The position numbers and the translations under genes are program-made. Below are positions 1,607 to 57,128 of a stretch of DNA of 64,000 nucleotides, in pieces. The stretch is from Ruditapes philippinarum (lineage: Eukaryota): positions 126,256-190,255 of the forward strand of contig NW_026852812.1 in assembly GCF_026571515.1 (NCBI RefSeq), read 5' to 3'. The notes below the pieces were generated by a model. That model did no database searches. It was not told the DNA's origin and saw nothing but the letters and a program-made list of their open reading frames with translations. How positions within the stretch are numbered: position 1 is the stretch's first letter; the number at the start of each line of letters is the position of its first letter.

Positions 1607-1813
<207 letters not shown>

Positions 1814-2689
1814 CTACTGTTTTAAAATAAATATTTACGAAAATTGTCCATGACTAAAATACTCGCAATAAAGAAACACCTTTAACCAAATGCAATTGCA
1901 CTGTTCCTGTTATTTCCGAGTATCAAAGCATTTGTTAAGGTATAAACAGTCACAAATCATCACATTAGTGAAATTACTGGTTAACTCCAAATAAATTTAA
2001 AAGGACTTAATCTGTTACTGCACTAAGGTGACAAAATATTCAAGATTTACCAAAACTGCAATTCCAAAAGATTGTTGCAAAAGATGCTGTATCATAATTA
2101 AACAAAGCATCACCATTTCTGTCTCCTAATAAGTCTTGTAAATGAAATACAACTAATGCTTTTTTTTTTCCTAAGTAAACTTTTTACTGTCAAGCAACAA
2201 ATACATATTCATGCCATAACAATTTTGTTTCCAGCTATAACTGTAGACCTTGTACCTGATATAAAGAAGGACTTCTCTTCACAATTATTATTATTCATAT
2301 TATTTGTACATAATCTATATAGATGAAGTATTTTTGCTTCTTTTTCCTTGTTGGTAATTGATATAATGATATTGAATTAGAATTTAGTCAAAATACTACT
2401 TTGTTTACATTTTGCTTTCTTTACAACACATTACTACACATTCAGCACTACTTTCTCCAGCTGTTTAACATGCTCTTAATCCATTATTAAAACATTATTA
2501 AACACATGTTTGACATTTCTAAAGAATCTAATAAATGTAGATTTCTAAGGCATAATGTGCCTTTAATGCCAGTAGAACCACCAACTTCGAGTAAGTTATA
2601 TGGATACCTTGCAGACATTAAAGAATTAAAAGTCCTTCACCCCTGATTCAAAAACAAACACATGTGATAGACATATGATTCAAAGCCAG

Positions 2690-3217
<528 letters not shown>

Positions 3218-3490
3218 TCATGGGAAAAAAAACAAATTCGTGTATTCCACTAATAACGGCCAATTTCTCAACAAAAGCTACAGCAAAGATCAATCTGCAT
3301 ATTGTCATCTACTAAGTCATTTCAAGAAGCATCAAGATCTTGTAAGTGTAACTTGTGCTTGAAAAATATCAGATACAGTTACTCAACATTTATAAAGAAA
3401 GCGGTGAAAACATCATTCCCTAGGTCTTACATTTTATTGATATTAGATTGATCATTTCTGAAATATGTTGCAAATCATCATAACTAATCA

Positions 3491-3868
<378 letters not shown>

Positions 3869-6653: not shown

Positions 6654-6972
6654 TTATTATAACAAAATCAAAAACATATAAAATAATGACAAATAACACA
6701 ATCTTTTTAAAACAATATCATAAAGTTTTCACCCTATCATTTAGATTAGTGTATTACTTCTTAAGAAACTAAACAAAGTTTGATAAATGAATGTTTAATG
6801 TGGGGTAAAGCTTTTAAAAAGTTGGCAAATTCAATTAAACCAGAAGTAAGAGTAATGGATAAGTTATATCTTTTTAGACAATGAGACTTTGGGTTTGAGC
6901 TCACTCAACAATAACACTGAATATCAAAGACTGACCATTTCATAGATCTAAGTAAAGACTATAAGAATTTAC

Positions 6973-7093
6973 ACTGTCTGCCAGTACAGACCGGAATATC
7001 TAGCTCAAGGGTATTTGTTAAAGGTGGTAAGAGGCTCTGCCGAGTTTCCGCTAAACAGTTACCAGAGAGCTAGATATTCCTGTCTGTACCGAC
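6973..7093. repeat. Imperfect inverted repeat with arms of about 30 bp and a spacer of about 60 bp.
   Basis: The arm gtacagaccggaatatctagctc pairs with gagctagatattcctgtctgtac. It lies between the CtBP exon and the CRE cluster. Confidence 0.6.
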
Positions 7094-7229
7094 AGCCGGT
7101 GTTTGATTCTTTTTCTTGTATATTACATATCAATTATTTTCAGAACAGAAATTACGTAAAATAAAATTCTCATTATGCATTTTTTCTTATAGTAGCTTCT
7201 GAACTTACAAATTCATTCATAATGGTAAA

Positions 7230-12369: not shown

Positions 12370-12750
12370 AATGATGGTATCCATAAAGAACTTTAAATAA
12401 TTTTTGATGGTATCCATAAAGAACTTTAAATAATTTTATCAGGAAAAGCACTGGAAATTCAGTCAAATACTGGTATCCATAAAGAACTTTAAATAATTTT
12501 ATCAGGAAAAGCACTGGAAATTCAGTCAAATACTGGTATCCATAAAGAACTTTAAATAATTTTATCAGGAAAAGCACTGGAAATTCAGTCAAATACTGGT
12601 ATCCATAAAGAACTTTAAATAATTTTATCAGGAAAAGCACTGGAAATTCAGTCAAATACTGGTATCCATAAAGAACTTTAAATAATTTTATCAGGAAAAG
12701 CACTGGAAATTCAGTCAAATACTGGTATCCATAAAGAATTGTCAACTTGT
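12370..12750. repeat. Tandem repeat with a 63-bp unit in about 6 copies, followed by a degenerate older array to about 13110.
   Basis: The unit is tatccataaagaactttaaataattttatcaggaaaagcactggaaattcagtcaaatactgg. ORF 12362..12745(-) is an artefact. Degenerate (c/t)ataaagaa units continue 3' of the array. Confidence 0.9.
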
Positions 12751-15296: not shown

Positions 15297-15533
15297 AAAT
15301 GAGCCGTGTCATGACAAAACCAACGTAGTGCGTTTGCGACCAGCATGGATCCAGACCAGCCTGCGCATCCGCGCAGTCTGATCAGGATCCATGCTTCTCT
15401 ACTTGCTATAGGGTTTGTAAACAAACAGCATGGATCCTGATCAGACTGCACTGATGCGCAGGCTGGTCTGGATCCATGCTGGTCGCAAACCCATTATGTT
15501 GGTTTTGTCGTGACGCGGCTCAAATAAAGATAA
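15297..15533. mobile_element. MITE of family A, about 240 bp, with long TIRs of the form tgagccgtgtcatgacaaaaccaac...gttggttttgtcgtgacgcggctca.
   Basis: The TIRs are near-perfect over about 70 bp and the element is foldback-like (ccagcatggatccagaccagcctgcgcatc... mirrored). Related copies lie at 48104-49680 and 56888-57128. ORF 15191..15451(-) is an artefact. Confidence 0.85.
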
Positions 15534-27559: not shown

Positions 27560-28140
27560 CAGCATGCTATAAATAGCTCTCGAGAAGTCTTAACAGTGTT
27601 TCGATGTACTTTTCCTGCAGGGTAATATTACTGAAATACTTACTTTGAAACAGCTCAGAAATGTTTTTCTTGCATAGCAGACTAGCGTTTCCGTGAGTTT
27701 TACCCATGCCGGAAATTTCATCTGGCATGGGGGGTTCCAGATGAGTCGCGTGCCAAACAACAACGTCATTTTACCGCACTTTATGGATGAACCGCGTTAA
27801 ATTGACGTCGTTTTAGAAGGGAAATATGTGCTTATGATGACGTCATTTCACTGTTGTTATTTAAGTTGTAAGTTCATACGCTATTGTAAGAAAATAGTAA
27901 TGAATGAAATGACTTTAATTTTCATGAACATATATCGCATTGAGGTAAACCATTTTAAATATGAAATAATATGGCAGAATATGCAAGAAAAAATATCTGA
28001 CATATGTTTGCGGTTCGGATCGGAATATCCGTCCCTCGGGAACCCGCCCATGGGCGGTAACTCGGCAAGCCTCGTTACCGCCCAAATGGGCGGGTCCCCT
28101 CGGGACGGATATTCCGGTCCAAACCGCAACATATGACAGA
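27560..28140. promoter_or_regulatory. CpG-rich island-like block with a TATA-like ctataaatagctc motif, a CRE site and a long palindrome at its 3' end. It may be an orphan promoter or a young transposable element.
   Basis: The CpG dinucleotide density is far above the flanking sequence. ctataaatag is at about 27573 and TGACGTCA is at 27838-27845. No coding homology was detected nearby. Confidence 0.3.
27998..28135. repeat. Long imperfect palindrome (foldback) of about 138 bp with nested GC-rich palindromes, ccgcccatgggcgg and ccgcccaaatgggcgg.
   Basis: The arm catatgtttgcggttcggatcggaatatccgtccctcgggaacccgcccatgggcggtaactcggc is mirrored as gcctcgttaccgcccaaatgggcgggtcccctcgggacggatattccggtccaaaccgcaacatatg. 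ORFs 27828..28136(+) and 27881..28132(-) are artefacts of this palindrome. Confidence 0.8.
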
Positions 28141-35039: not shown

Positions 35040-36280
35040 GCAACCAAACTTTACAGAAATGATCCTTAGGTGGACCCCTTTCAAAGTTGTTCAAAAATTT
35101 AAATTCCATTAAAAACTCTGGTTGCCATGGCAACCAATAAGAAAAACTTGAAAAATCTTCTTCTAAAAAACCGTAAGAGCTAGAGCTTAGATATTTGGCA
35201 TGAAACATCTTCTAATGAGTGCCTACCAAGTTTGTTCAAATCAAAGCCCTAGGGTCAAAATTGGCCCCGCCCCAGGGGGTCATTGATTTTCCCTATATGC
35301 ATATAGTAAAAACTTAAAAAATCTTCTTTTAAAGAACTCAAAGAGCTAGAGCTAAGATATTTAGCATGAAACATGTTCTAATAGGTGTCTACCAAGTTTG
35401 TTCAAATAAAAGCCCTGGGGTCAAAATTGGCTCCGCCCCGGGGGTCATTGATTTTCCTTATATGTGTATAGCAAAAACTTAAAAAAATCTTCTTTAAAAA
35501 AACCCAAATAGCTGGAGTTTAGCTATTAAGCATGAAACATCCTCTAGTGAGTGTCTACAAAAGTTTGTTCAAATCAAAGCCCTGGGGTCAAAATTGGCCC
35601 CGCCCCGGGGGTCATTGATTTTCCTTATATGACTGTGTATAGCAAAAACTTAAAAATCTTCTTTGAAAAAACCCAGATAGCTAGTGTTTAGATATAAAGC
35701 ATGAAACATCTTCTAGTGAGTGTCTACCAAGTGTGTTCAAATAAAAGCCCTAGGGTCAAAATTGGCCCCGCCCCAGGATGTCTTTGATTTTCCCTATATG
35801 CATATAGTTAAAACTTAAAAAATCTTCTTTTAAAGAACCCAAAGAGCTAGAGCTAAGATATTTAGCATGAAACATCTTCTAATGAGTGTCTACAAAGTTT
35901 GTTCAAATAAAAGCCCTAGGGTCAAAATTGGCCCTGCCCCCGGGGGACATTGATTTTCCCTATGTGCATATAGTAAAAACTTAAAAAATCTTCTTTTAAA
36001 GAACTCAAAGAGCTAGAGCTAAGATATTTAGCATGAAACATGTTCTCATGGGTGTCTACCAAGTTTGTTCAAATAAAAGCCCTGGGGTCAAAATTGGCCC
36101 CGCCCCGGGGGTCATTCATTAGCTTGATTTTTTTTGTTAAGATATATACATATTATATATATACACATATATATTTAATATTTATATATATATGCATGCA
36201 TACATATACAACCAAGTTTGTTCAAATAAAAGCCCTGGGGTTTAAACTGGCCCCGCTCCAGGGGCCTATATACAGGTGAG
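35040..36280. repeat. Tandem satellite of about 195 bp with roughly 6 units, in MAEA intron 1. It is preceded by a hairpin plus the gcgtccgtcgtgcgtcc leader at 34915-34990.
   Basis: The unit is ..gtttgttcaaat(c/a)aaagccctagggtcaaaattggccccgccccagggggtcattgattttccctatatgcatatagtaaaaacttaaaaaatcttcttttaaagaactcaaagagctagagctaagatatttagcatgaaacat.., seen repeatedly. The AT-rich block 36120-36220 interrupts the array. Confidence 0.85.
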
Positions 36281-44794: not shown

Positions 44795-45535
44795 TAAATC
44801 AAAGTGTCAGAGCAAATATAATATTGTCAGTGCAAGAATTGTATTGTCAGTGCAAGAATTGTATTGTCAGTGCAAGTATGGACCATTCCGGTTTTTCGTA
44901 GCGGAACATTTAGCCACACCTTTTCCATTCATTGCTAGGTCAACTGCTCACAAACAGTATCACAAACAAAACCATGTGTTCTTTTGTGCAAACCAGGTCA
45001 ACCAGTGACTATGTATTATCTCAGTGTAGTAATTGGATATCAAGTTAGCCAATTTCTATAAATCTGTAAACACTGGAAAGGTCCATTGTATTGTTAGTGC
45101 AATAATTGTATTGACAGTGAAAGAATTGTATTGACAGTGAAAGAATTGTATTGTCAGTGCAATAATTGTATTGTCAGTGCAATAATTGTATTGACAGTGA
45201 AAGAATTGTATTGACAGTGAAAGAATTGTATTGACAGTGCAAGATCTGTAATGTCAGTGAAAGAATTGTATTGTCAGTGCAAAGAATTGTGAAAGAATTG
45301 TATTGTCAGTGCAAGATCTGTAATGTCAGTGAAAGAATTGTATTGTCAGTGCAAGAGCTGTAATGTCAGTGAAAGAATTGTATTGTCAGTGCAAGATCTG
45401 TAATGTCAGTGAAAGAATTGTATTGTCAGTGCAAGATCTGTAATGTCAGTGAAAGAATTGTATTGTCAGTGCAAGAATCGTAATGTCAGTGTAAGTATTG
45501 TATTGTCAGTGAAAGAATCGTACTATCAAAAGTAT
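44795..45535. repeat. Minisatellite with a 20-bp unit (attgtattgtcagtgcaaga and variants) in about 36 copies. It lies in MAEA intron 7 and ends about 60 bp before the exon 8 acceptor.
   Basis: Direct visual periodicity. Variant units include gaaagaattgtattgacagt and gcaagatctgtaatgtcagt. Confidence 0.9.
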
Positions 45536-45593
45536 GTTTGAGTTTATGCAAGCTTTTTAATAGCTTATTAAATTCCTTTACATCAATCATCAG

Positions 45594-45789
45594 ATACTGT
45601 TACAAAACTGAGGGTAACAGTAAGAATGCTGAATGTCCGGTTTGTAGCCGGAACCTAAACAAACTAGGTCAGCACCTGCCATACGCTCACTGTGCTAATT
45701 CCAAATTGATATGTCATATCAGCGGTCAAGCTTTGAATGAGCATAACCCACCTATGATGTTACCAAACGGATATGTATACGGTTGTAAT
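45594..45789 (+). CDS. MAEA: MAEA exon 8, covering the RING-Gid-type zinc-finger region, phase 2 to 0.
   Basis: Translation [65 protein letters not shown] matches human [65 protein letters not shown]. The acceptor is caatcatcag, the donor is gtaagtg, and the frame comes from ORF 45538..45882. Confidence 0.93.
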
Positions 45790-46596
45790 GTAAGTGTAAA
45801 CATTATTGTAATTCTTAAAATTCAACAAAATGGTATAATATTAAAGTTGCACGCCTTCAGCAAATACGGTATATTTCGATGAAAATCAAACCTAAGAAAA
45901 ATGTAGTAAAGTTTTTAGGAAAGGTATAAAGATTAAAAATTCTAGCAATACTTTACATGTTATGTGCGATTAACGACCGATTTTTCAGTATTCATAACTA
46001 TATTAATTACGCACTAAGGGCTATTTTTGCATATTGTGACCTCTTTATTGTAATTAACATGGGTTGTAAGTGCAATTGATGATGTGAAAGTTGTATTCTT
46101 TTGTAACTTCACAATATAATACTGTTAAATACATTTTCAAATTTTCATGAAATAAGCATGAATCTGGAGGCGTGCTGCTTTAAAGAAACAAAGTATAAAA
46201 ACATTCACATTTTGGCTCTATAATCTAAATGTCTCCTATTTATGTTGAGTTATGCATTATTTTAGAAGATATATCTTTTCAGGCATACAATGTCCATCTT
46301 TGTTTACTGTATGTAGCATTATTGATTACTACAGTAGTTAAACACTACATTGTACATAATTAAAAAAAAAACCAATCTATTTTATTGTAATAGATGTATA
46401 TAATCTATAATACAAACATGAACAAAGTATGATGTGAGAGCCTTTCAATTTAAACCGCAAAATAAAACGGAAGCATAATAGCTGAACTGTATTTTATTCA
46501 CTATTTTATAAGTTATCCTGTGCACTTAATATAGTTATGATTTTGATTTAATATTTCTATGATTATTTCAATCTTATTTTTGTTTGTAAATTACAG

Positions 46597-46854: not shown

Positions 46855-48103
46855 GCTTGTTTTGCAAATATAGTTTTTAAACAAAGAAAATATAAATTGA
46901 TCAATTAAAAAAACTGGGGGTTTTTACCAAAAGTAATTTTTACAACTATTTTTTTGAAGGTTTTTTTTTGTACCAAAAATAAGGCATTAAAAAGGATGTG
47001 ATTTTTTAAAAAAAGGTACCCCAAAATCAGTTTTTTTTTACCTAAACTTTAGATATGATATTAAGCAAAAATTCTACTTTTAATTCAAACTTGGATTTGT
47101 AATGAAAATTTATGTGTGATCTGATTAAATAGGCAGTCATATGAAGAAAAAAGTACAAGTAGAAGAAGTTTGCATACAATTTTTGTTTATTTTACTGACA
47201 ATTTTCCTTTTTTCACAACAGGTCTTTAGTTTTTGTTTTTTGTTGTTTTTTTTGTTCAATACTAAAAAAGTTCTGTTTAAAACAGGCATTATACTGCAAA
47301 ATCATTATTATTCATGGGGCACTAATTTTCGTGGTTTTTCATAGATAGGTCAGTCCACTACTTTATGATCCAACAAAATTTTATTTTGTCTGCTATAATA
47401 TTATTTGCATTACATTATATTTATTTTACGTTTTGGAAAAAATAGACAATCCAAGAATTTAAGAACTCACGAAAATTTTTCCTATGTGGACAAAAACCAG
47501 CGAAATTTCATGCCCACCGAAAATTAAAGTGAATTTACAGTAATGTGAACGCATTTTGTATTTAATTCTTGGACCAGATGTGAGATTTGAAAATTGTTGA
47601 ATAAGGACAAGCAATTTGCTATAAGACAATTGGGGAAAGTATTTTAAGTTGTAATTGGTGAGGAGTTGGAATGCTTGAGAAGTATAAAATTTTTGTGTTC
47701 ACTTTATACTCCAATGAGGAAAGTGATATCATATGTAAATATGATAGCTCAGTTTTCCAGTCATTGTGTGAATCTTTTATCATTGCTTAAATTAAATAGC
47801 CATAGCAATGATACATGTTAATTAATTTAGATCATGTAATTAAGGATGATAATCATTATTGTTTTCAGTTTTTAAATCATATCATGCAAATATATTAGGA
47901 TTGTTTCAAGGTATTTATCTAGAAAGCATGAGTGCTGCAATATTTGGAGAAACATAATATACAATGTATACGTTGTATAAAAAATTTAAAGAATCATGTG
48001 CACAAATTTGGTTTTAAGAAAGTCATATGATTCTGAATACATTAGTTCTTATTATGTTATTTCTTGAAACTTGAATGCAACAGTTTCAGTAGTACCTAAA
48101 AAT

Positions 48104-49680
48104 ATTTGAGCGGCGCCATGACAAAACCAACATAATGGGTTTGCAACCAGCATGGATCCAGACCAGCCTGCAGTCTGATCAGGATCCATGCTGTCCGCTA
48201 TCAGTTTCTCTACTTGTTATAGGGTTTGTAAGCGAACAGAATGGATCCCGATCAGACTGCACGGATGCACAAGCTGATCTCGGTACAAGTCAACCCGGCC
48301 CCAAGTCAATCCGGCCCCAAGTCAGCCCGGCCTCAAATTGGTCAACCCGGCCCCAAACCAATGTTATTTCTGGTCAACCCGGCCCCATTTTTTTATTATT
48401 TATTTTGCTTTAAAATATAAACACTTATCAAGAAATAAAATAAAAATTAACAACAAAAACAACAACCGATGATATCTTTTATTATTTATTTTATATAAAA
48501 ACTAGCAATATTAACAATCAAGCAACACATGCATAGTTTACTGTTTTTACCGTCGCGAAAATAAGGTGACGTCTGTCTTTAACCTTAACATCTCAACGAT
48601 AGAAGTATTACGAAAAAACTTAACTTTTTTTATTGACATATCATTGAAAAGAAACCTTAATGTGTTCAAATCATTACTGTGTTATTGTATGTTAAAAAAA
48701 GAAATGACGAAAAGCACACGTTAAAAAGTGTTTCCGATTAACAGTTTTTAAGTTTAATGATTCATTATGAGATTGAGCCATCTATCAAAAGGTATCGGCA
48801 GGTCACTGCCCCTGTCTGTCACGCACAATATATCCACCAAGTCCAAATACAGTTATCCGTCAATAATGACAGTTAAAGTGCATGAAACACAAAACACTAT
48901 CAATTTTTTCAAACACTTATTTAATAATTTTCAATACTTTTTTTACACAGTTTAAATAATTCTTTGAAAAAAAGTTAATAAAAAACAAACAAATAATTAA
49001 TTAAACTGAATGAACGTATTCAATAAACATTCAAATGAACTGAAATAAAGATTGTTGGAAACTTAATTTTATACCATACATTGTAATATAACTCCGTGGG
49101 TTAACACTCACGAAACCCTCTTTAATTTACATCGAATAAAGACATGGGAAAGATACTACCAACTTATTTAAAAAGGGGGATTTTGTTTTCATAGCTACCT
49201 TTTAAACTGTTTGATTATCACATCTGAAATAATGTTGATGTATATATAATTGTTGAGTTATATAATTATTCATTATCTGTATTGCATATTAAAGTCTTAA
49301 TCTGCGCAATTAAATTTACCGACACTTTTATGCCAGTTCATGTTTTTTAACTATTGTTCTATAGTTAATAATATTCAATTAATAATAAATCATTTTATTC
49401 CATCATACAACAAAATGACCTGAATAGTTTTCTTTGAAAATATATATTTTGGGGCCGGCATGACCGATTTTTGGGCCCCACTGACCAATTTTGGGGCCGC
49501 ATTGACCAAATAAAAATACTGTGGGGCCGGATTGACCAATCTTGGGGCCGGGTTGACCAATTTTGAGGCCGGGTTGACTTGGGGCCGGGTTAACTTGGGG
49601 CCGGGTTGACTGTAATTCGCTGATCCGGATCTATGCTGGTCACAAACGCATTATTTTGGTTTTGTCATGGCGGAGCTCAA
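48104..49680. mobile_element. Expanded copy of MITE family A, a roughly 1.6 kb foldback. The same TIRs flank internal inverted arrays of short GC-rich repeats and an AT-rich core.
   Basis: The left end is tgagcggcgccatgacaaaaccaacataatgggtttgcaaccagcatggatccagacc and the right end is the mirror ..ggatctatgctggtcacaaacgcattattttggttttgtcatggcggagctca. Inside are (caacccggccccaagt)n at 48285-48380 and the inverted (ggggccgggttgac)n at 49455-49615. ORF 48135..48413 is an artefact. Confidence 0.8.
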
Positions 49681-52600
49681 ATTCTTAAACTTCTGACAGC
49701 CTATACCTCAGGCATAATGCCATCTTGTCTGACCAGGCTTTTCAAGTTCATCATTCGGATATTGAAATCCCTTTAATGTATGTGGGACAGTCCAAAAAAA
49801 CAATGTAGAGCATTTCCATTATACAAAGTCAGTGAGTTTAAATTAGATCATGACAAGTTTTAAAACCATTTCATTCCATTTAACAGGGCTTTTTAAGTGT
49901 TTGCCTATTCATGTATTGAATTTAATGCAAGTTAATTAAAAGGTTCAAACATGTCAACAGTTCCTACATTTATGTACACAAAGAATTAAAAAATTAAAGA
50001 ATATTGGAAAGTTGCATTTCCTTGAGAGGTGAATGTCACTGATTTCATGTTTCAGTGGAAACTTTGAGAAGAAATTAAAAAAAATAATGTTCATTTTTCA
50101 AATAATAAGGAAGTTTACTACTTATGCCAACAAATTTTGTTTTTCTGGAAATTTAACTCTGATTGGGATATTGACTCCAATTGGGGTAATGACACCAATG
50201 TGGAAATTTATAGATTTATGCCACTAGAACCCCTTTGTGGCTCAGGGGTTGCCTTTGAGGGTTGAGACATCAGAATTGCAGCCACCATTTATCCTGGGTT
50301 GATCATAAGAGGCTGCTAAATGAGATTGAACTCCTGGAGTCTATGCATCTTTTAGCTCCAGCAGGTGAGGTAGTTTTGACCCCTGGTTTTAACACCCGAA
50401 GTTAGCCAAAACAGTATTTCCTGTTTCAGCACCATATGATCTAAATTGTGTTGGATGAGCCGTAAAACCAAACACAACATAAAAAGAACAGAGCTGTCCA
50501 GCTCATTTTTTAAGTCTGTTCAGATTATAGTTGTTGTTTTCAGTATTTTTAAACTGAAATCCTTTAGTTTGAAAATTAAAGCTGTACAAATCAGTTTTCA
50601 AATTAAGTGATAAATTATATGAAGGAAGTAATGCATAAATAATTAATATATACATGTTCTCAAATGTATGAAAGGACATATAAGTTTAATATGTATTATA
50701 CACAAACACTTATATATTATATTAAATCTCATGCTAATCTACCTCAAAGTAGCCTAGTAATGTATATGTATGTGTCTCATTAACAAACATTCTTGTGTTG
50801 TTTTTTGGGAGATTGGGGGATTTTTTTTATTACACACTATCTGGCCACTACTGGTACGAAATCAAAGAACTTTTGTCCAGTTACTGATTATTGGCTATAT
50901 TGATAATAATGGCCTAATCACTGATTTACTGATAGCAAATTATAAGTAAGTGTTTAGAATAATAAGTTTATTAACGGTGTAATTATGTCAAAGTTCTGGT
51001 ATAAAACAAGGGGATAGCTCTTTGCTTAGATTGTTTTGTGTTATATATCATTTGTATGTAAAGAAAAGTACAAATATATTAGAATCTAACTGTAAGATTT
51101 TGTCTCTTTTTCTTTAGATAGTTGTAAAGTTTTTTTTTTGCAAATGATATCCATTAGTTTTGTTTTCATAAGTTGTTATAGAGTGAGTGCATAACGAAAA
51201 TAGTTATGGTGATTAATATTTTTTATTCACATAATCAAAAACTGTGTGTTATCAATAATTATTGTGCATGCCCTATGTATATAATCCATTGTTAACAATG
51301 TTTTTGTTTTTAAAGAAATTTTGTGTTAATGTTTAGTTAATAAGGAATGTCTCTTTAAATTCAAAAAATTTTTTTAACAGTTCTACTATTGTCCATCCAA
51401 ATGTCTATGAATTTTTCTTTATTGCTTGTGAGATACAATGCCTATTTATTCATTAAAAAATGAACAACTGTATAAAGTGCCATATTTAGAGTTTTGTAAG
51501 TAAGTGTGTGATGTGGTTGAGTAGTATAATATATGGTTTCTTATATTTCAATCAAGAAGTTTAAAATCAAGAAGTTTAATAAAATACCAAACACCAAAAC
51601 AATAACAGATCAGATTCAAATGTTGTTGTTATGCTTTTTACCAGACAATGATTTATTTTTCCAACAGATATTATTTTTACCAGTTCATTTCTCCCTTTGG
51701 GAGATAAAAATTTTCGATGTTAAAAAGGGGTGTTGTTCAAAAGATAGTAAATTTTATTGTGAATACTACTTTGGAAAAGAAAAAGATTAATACAATTATT
51801 GTAAAGAGGTGATTGCTGTATAAAATGTCCTTTTAGTCCAACATTGATGTGAAAAGACAAAGTATGTGAGATTGAATAGGGGCAATCTTGTTAGGGCATT
51901 ATTATTCTTGTGTTTCGTTCAGGATAACATGATTTTTTTATATTTTTTTTTTTCATAAAAATATTTCAGTGTGTGACACTGTGTGTACTATGTTATTAGT
52001 TGTATATTTTGTAAATCCGCTATTTTTTTTTTTTTTTTTTTTACCTTAGGAAAAGAAAAAAGCATGGAAGTGCTATAAGCTGGTGAAGTTAACCACTTAA
52101 ATAGATTTCATTAATGCCCTTCATTTATTTTGTATGTTTGAAGCTAAGAGTAATGAATGAAAACGATGACAGAAACACCGAATTTATAAAACATAGCTGT
52201 GTAAAATCCAGTGTGATGTCTCGGATCAAATATGGGCCAAGAAATATTCTGCTCTCCTCAATGAGATCTACATCCACATATTAAACTACAAATTGATACC
52301 TCCTACTTTGAGTATTTCTCCCACAAGCAAAACCATAGGTCAGACAGACAGACAGACATACAGTAATGTTCTCCCTAGTTTTCTTATGATCCATTTAGAG
52401 ATTTTTACTTTTACAAATAGGCTTATCTTATCAAAGATTTTAGTTCTGTTTTTGTTTGGTTCTATTTTTTGTCCAGCATCTTCCCATTTAGATTTGAATG
52501 CTGTTCTAAGTTCTTTACCTACTTTCTAATTTCTACCATTTCCTTTCTAGATATACATGTACATTATACTATATATGTATATTCTTCTCTGTATGCCTGA

Positions 52601-55640: not shown

Positions 55641-56489
55641 TTAACAATTGATTTTGTGTTTTTAATTGTGCTGTATTTCTTATTACAAGTCATATAGCAA
55701 TGAAATAAGTTTCAATGAAATTAAATGAATGGAAAGTGATTAGTCAGTCTATGCTACCAGTATAGTCCCAGGTCAGTCTGTACATCCATGTAGTCTGACC
55801 AAGCTCTATACTGCTGACTTAACAGTCTTTAACTTAAAGAGTCTCAAGATCTTGGTGTAAAATTTAAGTTATTACTTTTTAATATCCAGTAAATTGTTAA
55901 ACTTGACTAAGCATTGGATATATACATATCAACTTGTTTTCCAGCTTCTACTTAAAAAAAATCAGAAAAAAAGTTTTGGAAAGTTAACAAATTTTTATGT
56001 TTTGTAAAGCAGGGAAACCCGACCACCCGTGAAAAAATTATAAAAAATAGGAGGAACATCATACCCACCAGAAACACCCCCAATAATGCTTCTTCAAAAA
56101 ATTTTTCTATGGCAAACGGGTACAGTTTTTTTAAAATAAAATCTAGGGTTTAAATTAAGAAAAAATATTCCCAAAAACTTTTTTTTGGCTCAAAACATCA
56201 TTTTTGGATTGGGGCGAAATTAATCCGAGGGCGTACCCAATAAATGATGGCTCGAACAAACGTATGACCACGATAAAATACCATTTGATTTTTTTTTTCG
56301 ATTCTAACACACAACAAAAAAGCTGCCCCCTGCTATTAAAAAAATTGGGCCTTTTTGGTTTCCTATTTATGTCACGCTCTTTATATTTTACAAACATGTA
56401 AAAATAATTTAATCACAGTCAAAAATATAGAACGTCAAACAGGACTCTTTTTGCAAAAAAACCATTTGGGTCTCTATTTCAATAGGAAA

Positions 56490-56887: not shown

Positions 56888-57128
56888 TGAGCCGTGTCAC
56901 GACAAAACCAACATAATGGGTTTGCGACCAGCATGGATCCAGACCAGCCTGAGCATCCGCGCAGTCTGATCAGGATCCATACTGTTCGCTTACAACCCTA
57001 ATAAACAAGTAGAGAAACTGATAGCGCACAGCCATGGATCCTGATCAGACTGCACCGGATGCGCAGGCTGGTCTGGATCCATTCTGGTCGCAAACCCATT
57101 ATGTTGGTTTTTGTTGTGACGCGGCTAA
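56888..57128. mobile_element. MITE of family A, about 240 bp, inside the SMYD5 intron region.
   Basis: The sequence is nearly identical to the 15297-15533 copy (tgagccgtgtcacgacaaaaccaacataatgggtttgcgaccagcatggatccagaccagcctgagcatccgcgcagtctgatcaggatccat...). Confidence 0.85.

Follow-up and report, generated by a model that had tools for sequence, protein, structure and literature searches.

Foldback elements, among them FB of Drosophila, Tetris of D. virilis and Galileo of D. buzzatii, combine a non-coding middle with inverted ends that are built from tandem units, and in the classic foldbacks these repeats make up most of the element. The target-site duplication (TSD) is 9 bp long in FB, 7 bp in Galileo and 8 bp in the P superfamily, and binding sites for the THAP transposase are located in the TIR repeats of the P/Galileo group. 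The TIRs of hAT elements are short (about 10-25 bp) and begin with YARNG, the hAT target consensus is nTnnnnAn, and nested transposon insertions are commonplace. Most foldbacks have been assigned to Mutator (PMC6446971, PMC4079207), Tetris generates a TSD of 8-10 bp (PMC4079207) and additional sites for transposase binding are located in the tandem units of Galileo (cited by PMC4079207). The TSDs of MULEs range from 8 to 11 bp, and the Mutator-like element Spectre has 74-bp TIRs and an 8-bp TSD (PMC6446971). Every mollusc genome analysed in PMC10294476 contains MULEs; the same paper ranks hAT among the DDE superfamilies that are best represented in bivalves, and its curated bivalve DDE families do not include P.

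The locus described here (48104-49680) is located within a 64-kb stretch of DNA that was analysed as a whole (hereafter the window). A sequence-only reading of the window had regarded the locus as one copy of a MITE family that had been expanded into a 1.6-kb foldback. The locus is an ordinary nested transposon insertion and very probably consists of a 1,338-bp non-coding transposon with array-bearing arms (the array element) that is nested in the right arm of an ordinary copy of MITE family A (MITE-A).

MITE-A and its genomic setting

The window is AT-rich (about 33% GC) and contains intron-rich animal DNA. Exons of CtBP are located at 3.4-6.6 kb on the minus strand, and the 90% cluster of a CtBP exon has a protein of the gastropod Elysia marginata among its members. 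Two exons at ~44.4 kb (CTLH-domain) and 45.5-45.9 kb (RING-like) belong to a MAEA-like gene on the plus strand; the second is the last recognisable exon of the gene and lies ~2.3 kb upstream of the interval 48104-49680. The CtBP cluster and orthologous metagenome contigs point to a mollusc, and the repeat landscape might hint at a bivalve. A comparison of the window with Rfam (gathering thresholds) and a tRNA scan identified no family and no tRNA gene.

The window is rich in tandem arrays and small palindromic elements. A 63-bp unit at 12408-12738 is repeated 5.3 times and makes a spurious 127-aa ORF; the 100% identity of the units indicates a very recent tandem expansion. An array of 22 copies of a 20/40-bp unit (45085-45522) ends ~15 bp upstream of the ORF at 45538-45882, which contains the RING-like exon of the MAEA-like gene. 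A satellite-like array at 35142-36120 (166-bp unit, 5.9 copies) is also found at positions 1177-1729 of L123, a contig of the JGI metagenome 3300049158, with 73-81% identity. Two further palindromic MITE-like elements (6971-7102 and 28008-28129) have arms of 44-49 nt and loops of 34 nt, and a match to the first of the two is found on L123 as well (2549-2650). The CtBP exon region at 3079-3866 has an orthologous counterpart on an ENA metagenome contig (L128, ERZ13706889) with 93-98% identity, and the intron sequence between the two matching blocks is unalignable. Orthologous contigs from ENA and JGI thus place DNA of related species in public metagenome assemblies and, judged by its matches to the window, the JGI metagenome 3300049158 contains the DNA of an animal related to the source of the window. 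Sequences of the 166-bp satellite, the MITE and the array unit had 0 matches in full-text papers and in the supplements of papers on bivalve TEs and satellitomes.

Three palindromic MITE-A copies of ~240 bp are present in the window. The sequence-only reading had identified the same three copies as one TIR element, and the alignment confirms them with boundaries that differ by a few bases. Copy 1 (15300-15526, plus strand) was found to be intact by alignment, inverted-repeat analysis and fold analysis. Its arms of 96 nt are 93% complementary and enclose a loop of 31 nt, and the predicted fold is a near-perfect DNA hairpin of ~105 bp (dG -115 kcal/mol, z = -24 compared with shuffled sequences). 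Copy 2 (56888-57128, minus strand) aligns as a second intact copy with 84% identity to copy 1. In copy 3, the outer termini (48104-48167 and 49619-49682, 64 nt, 86% complementary) align to copies 1 and 2, so that the proposed relationship of the three pairs of termini was borne out. A 22-mer of the MITE-A arm occurs eight times in the window at ≤3 mismatches (0.00 occurrences expected).

The central loop of copy 2 (roughly 50 nt) is reverse-complementary to that of copies 1 and 3. Given the symmetry of the arms, it is the loop alone that shows the insertion of copy 2 in the opposite orientation. Each arm contains an inner hairpin (CAGCATGGATCCAGACCAGCCTGCG...CGCAGTCTGATCAGGATCCATGCTG) with halves that differ at 3 of 22 positions; these hairpins are located at 15339-15395 and 15427-15483 in copy 1 and at equivalent positions in the other copies, which makes the element a palindrome of palindromes. 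The left inner hairpin of copy 3 is missing 10-11 nt at its tip, and a weak relic of the inner hairpin (about 70% identity) is present at 55752-55815.

Further copies of the family were found in the JGI metagenome 3300049158. A protein search with a 92-aa ORF that extends from the MITE into the left array returned MITE-derived ORFs only, namely nine spurious "proteins" that all derive from this metagenome. The contigs behind these ORFs carry many MITE-A copies with 80-95% identity, and one contig of 2.7 kb (L124) contains three copies. An exact-pattern scan for the MITE core in genome contigs and viral contigs gave 0 matches. The MITE-A copies are always flanked by four A/T bases (AAAT, ATTT, AATT or ATAT) that are not direct repeats of each other, and a TSD was not definable from the flanks of the window copies (15297, 15530, 48104, 49680, 56885 and 57126) and of the copies on L122, L124 and L125.

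The insertion in MITE-A copy 3

In the multiple alignment, copy 3 follows the left arm, the loop and ~40 nt of the right arm up to ...GCACAAGCTGATCT at position 48280. This proximal part (48107-48280, plus strand) is collinear with copies 1 and 2 and with the metagenome copies, and several BLAST alignments stop exactly at 48280. Homology to the other MITE-A copies restarts with GCTGATCC at 49619 and continues through the distal right arm (49627-49679, plus strand) to the outer terminus ...GTCATGGCGGAGCTCA, as identified by alignment and BLAST. The foreign DNA is located off-centre within the right arm and not on the symmetry axis, which argues against a growth of the central region of the MITE itself.

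Eight base pairs of MITE sequence are present on both sides of the foreign DNA. The left copy (GCTGATCT, 48273-48280) corresponds to the same MITE positions that recur at 49619-49626, and the right copy (GCTGATCC) is identical to it at 7 of 8 positions by alignment and BLAST. When the segment 48281-49626 is deleted, copy 3 can be aligned over its whole length to the other two window copies and to three metagenome copies, and no gap remains at the junction; joining 48084-48280 to 49627-49703 likewise produces a full-length MITE. Over its full length, the shell of copy 3 without the insert is 78-90% identical to the window and metagenome copies. The two halves of copy 3 were also mapped to uninterrupted relatives. 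The matches are located at 185-371 and 364-416 of L125 and at 1092-1202 and 1195-1255 of L122, an overlap of exactly 8 bp in each case that identifies the repeated sequence as an 8-bp TSD. A longer TSD of 9 bp or 11 bp with TACA termini was considered and rejected, as the ninth base does not match in either copy and the overlap in the relatives is exactly 8 bp.

As a result of the insertion, the MITE-A arms of copy 3 lie 1.45 kb apart. To the left of the insertion, the copy has a best fold of -35 kcal/mol, compared with -115 kcal/mol for copy 1. The strong hairpin that is formed by an intact MITE copy is thus destroyed by the insertion. Very long hairpins or cruciforms, which had been proposed for the locus, are an overstatement of inverted repeats with arms of 64-110 nt that are 83-88% matched and 1.1-1.45 kb apart. 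The instability of inverted repeats drops steeply with a growing spacer. With a spacer of this width, 48104-49680 does not stand out as a candidate fragile site, contrary to the earlier suggestion, and the composite forms weaker hairpins than the intact MITE.

It could be argued that the whole 1.58-kb unit functions as a composite, either mobilised by the MITE-A transposase as a larger non-autonomous element or transcribed to a long hairpin RNA that enters small-RNA pathways. The unit retains the two outer termini of MITE-A with 86% complementarity, and the locus lies near or inside a transcribed gene on the plus strand. However, the window and the metagenome contigs compared contain no second copy of the junctions, an exact look-up in public assemblies has no record of the junction-spanning ORF, and the arms are short, with mismatches at 14-17% of positions and a separation of 1.1-1.45 kb. 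A composite with a function of its own is accordingly very unlikely.

The array element and its independent copies

The inserted array element (48281-49618, plus strand) is a non-autonomous TIR transposon of 1,338 bp with the ends CGGTACAAGTCAACC... and ...GGTTGACTGTAATTC; the same ends are found on contig L126 and the same right end on contig L127. Its terminal 40-mers are CGGTACAAGTCAACCCGGCCCCAAGTCAA... and ...TTGGGGCCGGGTTGACTGTAATTC. The left inverted-repeat arm (48281-48390, plus strand) contains five 16-nt units GTCAACCCGGCCCCAA that start at 48289, 48305, 48321, 48341 and 48373, and the right inverted-repeat arm (49446-49618, minus strand) contains seven units in reverse orientation, with five units collinear with the left arm and two or three degenerate inner ones. 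Between the arms lies a non-coding AT-rich core (48391-49445) of 1,055 bp and 26% GC, in agreement with the ~1 kb that had been estimated from the sequence, compared with 54-58% GC in the arms. No ORF longer than 62 aa is present in the element.

All 12 matches to the 13-mer CAACCCGGCCCCA in the window (≤2 mismatches, 0.16 expected) are located either at 48291-48387 on the plus strand or at 49450-49608 on the minus strand. The inner arms (48288-48357 and 49542-49611) are 83% complementary, so that the two arrays are mutually inverted, as had been claimed; overall, the inner arms of the array element measure 70-110 nt, are 83-88% matched and lie 1.1-1.2 kb apart. Tandem Repeats Finder identified a period of 16 on both sides and a period of 21 on the right side. 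The array unit is 16 nt long on each side (right-side form TTGGGGCCGGGTTGAC) and not 14 nt, and with units of 16-21 nt in 3-5 tandem copies the arrays are better described as short and minisatellite-like than as microsatellites.

When the left arm is aligned to the reverse-complemented right arm, each unit meets its counterpart, and unit 3 carries a CCTC variant in both arms. Three units follow each other at a spacing of 16 nt and are succeeded by a spacer, unit 4, a longer spacer and unit 5 (spacing 16-32 nt overall). This unit-for-unit match indicates that the arms are true inverted repeats of ~110 nt and not two independent microsatellite expansions. A foldback-type architecture with inverted ends of tandem units, which the sequence-only reading had recognised, is therefore real and is a property of the second element, which is nested in the MITE. 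At their outermost 3-4 nt, the two ends of the array element are not complementary (CGG at the left end and GAAT at the right end after reverse complementation) yet conserved between copies. This asymmetry is unusual for hAT and MULE elements. The right arm also contains a canonical G4 motif (49571-49605), defined as four runs of ≥3 G with loops of 1-7 nt, which is one of only four in the 64-kb window.

The window contains the array element only once. Three copies were found in all, the window copy and two on metagenome contigs of a single sample. An exhaustive HMMER search with a 73-aa ORF that reads through the right array returned two predicted peptides, which are encoded on the contigs L126 and L127 of the JGI metagenome 3300049158. 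L126 contains a 967-bp copy on the reverse strand (2741..1775) at a site outside any MITE, and this copy starts with CGGTACAAGTCAACCC and ends with GGGTTGACTGTAATTC, exactly as the window copy does. It is flanked by an 8-bp TSD of its own (ATCCATCG/ATCCAACG, 7/8 identical). A 7/8 match has a chance probability of ~4e-4 here, given that the boundaries were set beforehand from the window copy, and the TSDs in the window and in L126 each contain one mismatch in eight positions. A third copy, which is more diverged, is represented on L127 by its right end, where homology ends at the same base (...CTGTAATTC). The flanks of the three copies are mutually unrelated, and no MITE-A sequence is found beside the element in L126 or L127.

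In the L126 copy, 352 bp of the core (window positions 48385-48736) are deleted and the left arm is one 16-nt unit shorter, so that unit number varies between copies. The left arm of the window copy continues to match its own right arm beyond the L126 breakpoint, which indicates that the window state is ancestral and that the L126 copy is a deletion derivative. The remaining core segment (48737-49445) is 85% identical between the two copies. Identity between the window copy and L126 is 96.5% in the right arm and 85.2% in the core (Fisher p = 1.4e-5), and a higher conservation of the arm is expected if the arms are needed in cis for transposition.

The features expected of a non-autonomous class II TIR element were found in the form of identical ends, an 8-bp TSD in the window and in L126, insertion at unrelated sites and a deletion derivative. 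By these sequence features, the array element constitutes a separate family of non-autonomous cut-and-paste transposons whose inverted ends of ~110 nt are foldback-like, and the family is probably uncatalogued. What had been described as an expansion of the third MITE copy thus consists of the ends of a different transposon, with an 8-bp TSD, that is present on its own at non-MITE sites. No autonomous copy and no transposase partner of the array element was found in the window and the metagenome contigs compared. Six-frame translations of the arrays used as a concatenated protein query gave no scoring match among 8,000 candidates, and an exact-pattern scan for the right end of the element in genome contigs and viral contigs gave 0 matches. 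A separate scan of metagenomes for three occurrences of CCGGCCCCA with variable gaps returned at least 120 loci; those listed were rejected as bacterial or unrelated tandem repeats based on GC content, motif count and BLAST.

The copies on L126 and L127 also bear on the possibility that the 1.6-kb unit is a MITE-A variant that grew from within, or a longer ancestor from which the short MITEs arose by deletion. The outer termini of the unit are those of MITE-A and the whole unit forms one large inverted-repeat structure, as such a variant would. Against this, the loop and both arms of the MITE are all present and interrupted off-centre, 8 bp of MITE sequence are doubled at the junctions, and the array element occurs in L126 and L127 without a surrounding MITE, which leaves this explanation very unlikely. 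An assembly artefact that misjoined two unrelated repeats has a negligible probability in spite of the repeat-rich region, as a chimeric join would not yield an exact 8-bp duplication of MITE sequence around an element with the base-exact ends of independent copies. Nesting of the array element in MITE-A is by far the most probable reading.

Proposed history and comparison with described transposons

The order of events follows from the nesting. A palindromic MITE-A element of ~240 bp very probably inserted at the locus first, and the 1,338-bp non-autonomous DNA transposon later integrated into its right arm, which left 8 bp of the MITE in two copies. The position of the array element inside MITE-A indicates that the array family was active after MITE-A had landed at this site. 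The array element may be moved in trans by a transposase that is encoded elsewhere. By analogy with the TIR repeats of Galileo, the reiterated 16-nt units are putative transposase-binding sites, and the transposase might bind them as multiple sites, pair both ends, excise the element and reinsert it with a staggered 8-bp cut.

The distinction between one element and two affects the annotation of the locus. Read as a single element, it creates a false "giant" MITE variant and inflates the size classes of MITE-A. Read as two elements, it yields two clean repeat families for the masking and annotation of a mollusc-like genome, and the nesting dates the two families relative to each other. With its defined ends and its 8-bp duplication, the array family also provides a precise probe for the autonomous partner. 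A more far-reaching proposal, which is considered unlikely, is that the array element represents an uncatalogued foldback-like lineage of molluscs, with a transposase that recognises the GC-rich 16-nt unit and tolerates non-complementary outermost nucleotides, and that the G-rich, G4-capable arms could make nested composites a source of hairpin RNA or replication instability.

The superfamily of the array element can be apportioned roughly. A Mutator/Foldback-like affiliation may be the leading candidate without reaching an even chance, hAT would be nearly as likely and any other superfamily is unlikely. The array element shares with the foldback elements of Drosophila the tandem-unit TIRs and the non-coding middle (a core of 26% GC), which is the structural criterion for foldbacks, and its arms are short relative to the element. 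Each arm of ~110-170 nt accounts for 8-13% of the element, whereas the repeats constitute most of the element in classic foldbacks. There is no sequence similarity between the array element and these foldbacks, and the asymmetry of the outermost 3-4 nt is a further difference. The 8-bp TSD is similar in size to that of Tetris and differs from the 9 bp of FB and the 7 bp of Galileo. The array element resembles MULEs in its 8-bp TSD, which falls within the MULE range in both copies that have one, and in its long TIRs of ~110 nt; tandem-unit TIRs are not a general MULE feature.

A likeness to non-autonomous (Ds-like) hAT elements is seen in the 8-bp TSD, the internal-deletion derivative and the reiteration of a short motif near both ends. 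However, the YARNG start of hAT elements is absent, as the ends are CGGTAC... and GAATTAC... (reverse complement) in all copies, the inverted repeat is ~110 nt long, and neither of the two TSDs fits the hAT target consensus. The length of the TSD agrees with the P superfamily and not with Galileo. In nested insertions of MITEs and other TEs generally, one TIR element lies within another and is flanked by a TSD of host-element sequence, and MITE-A copy 3 is no different in principle.
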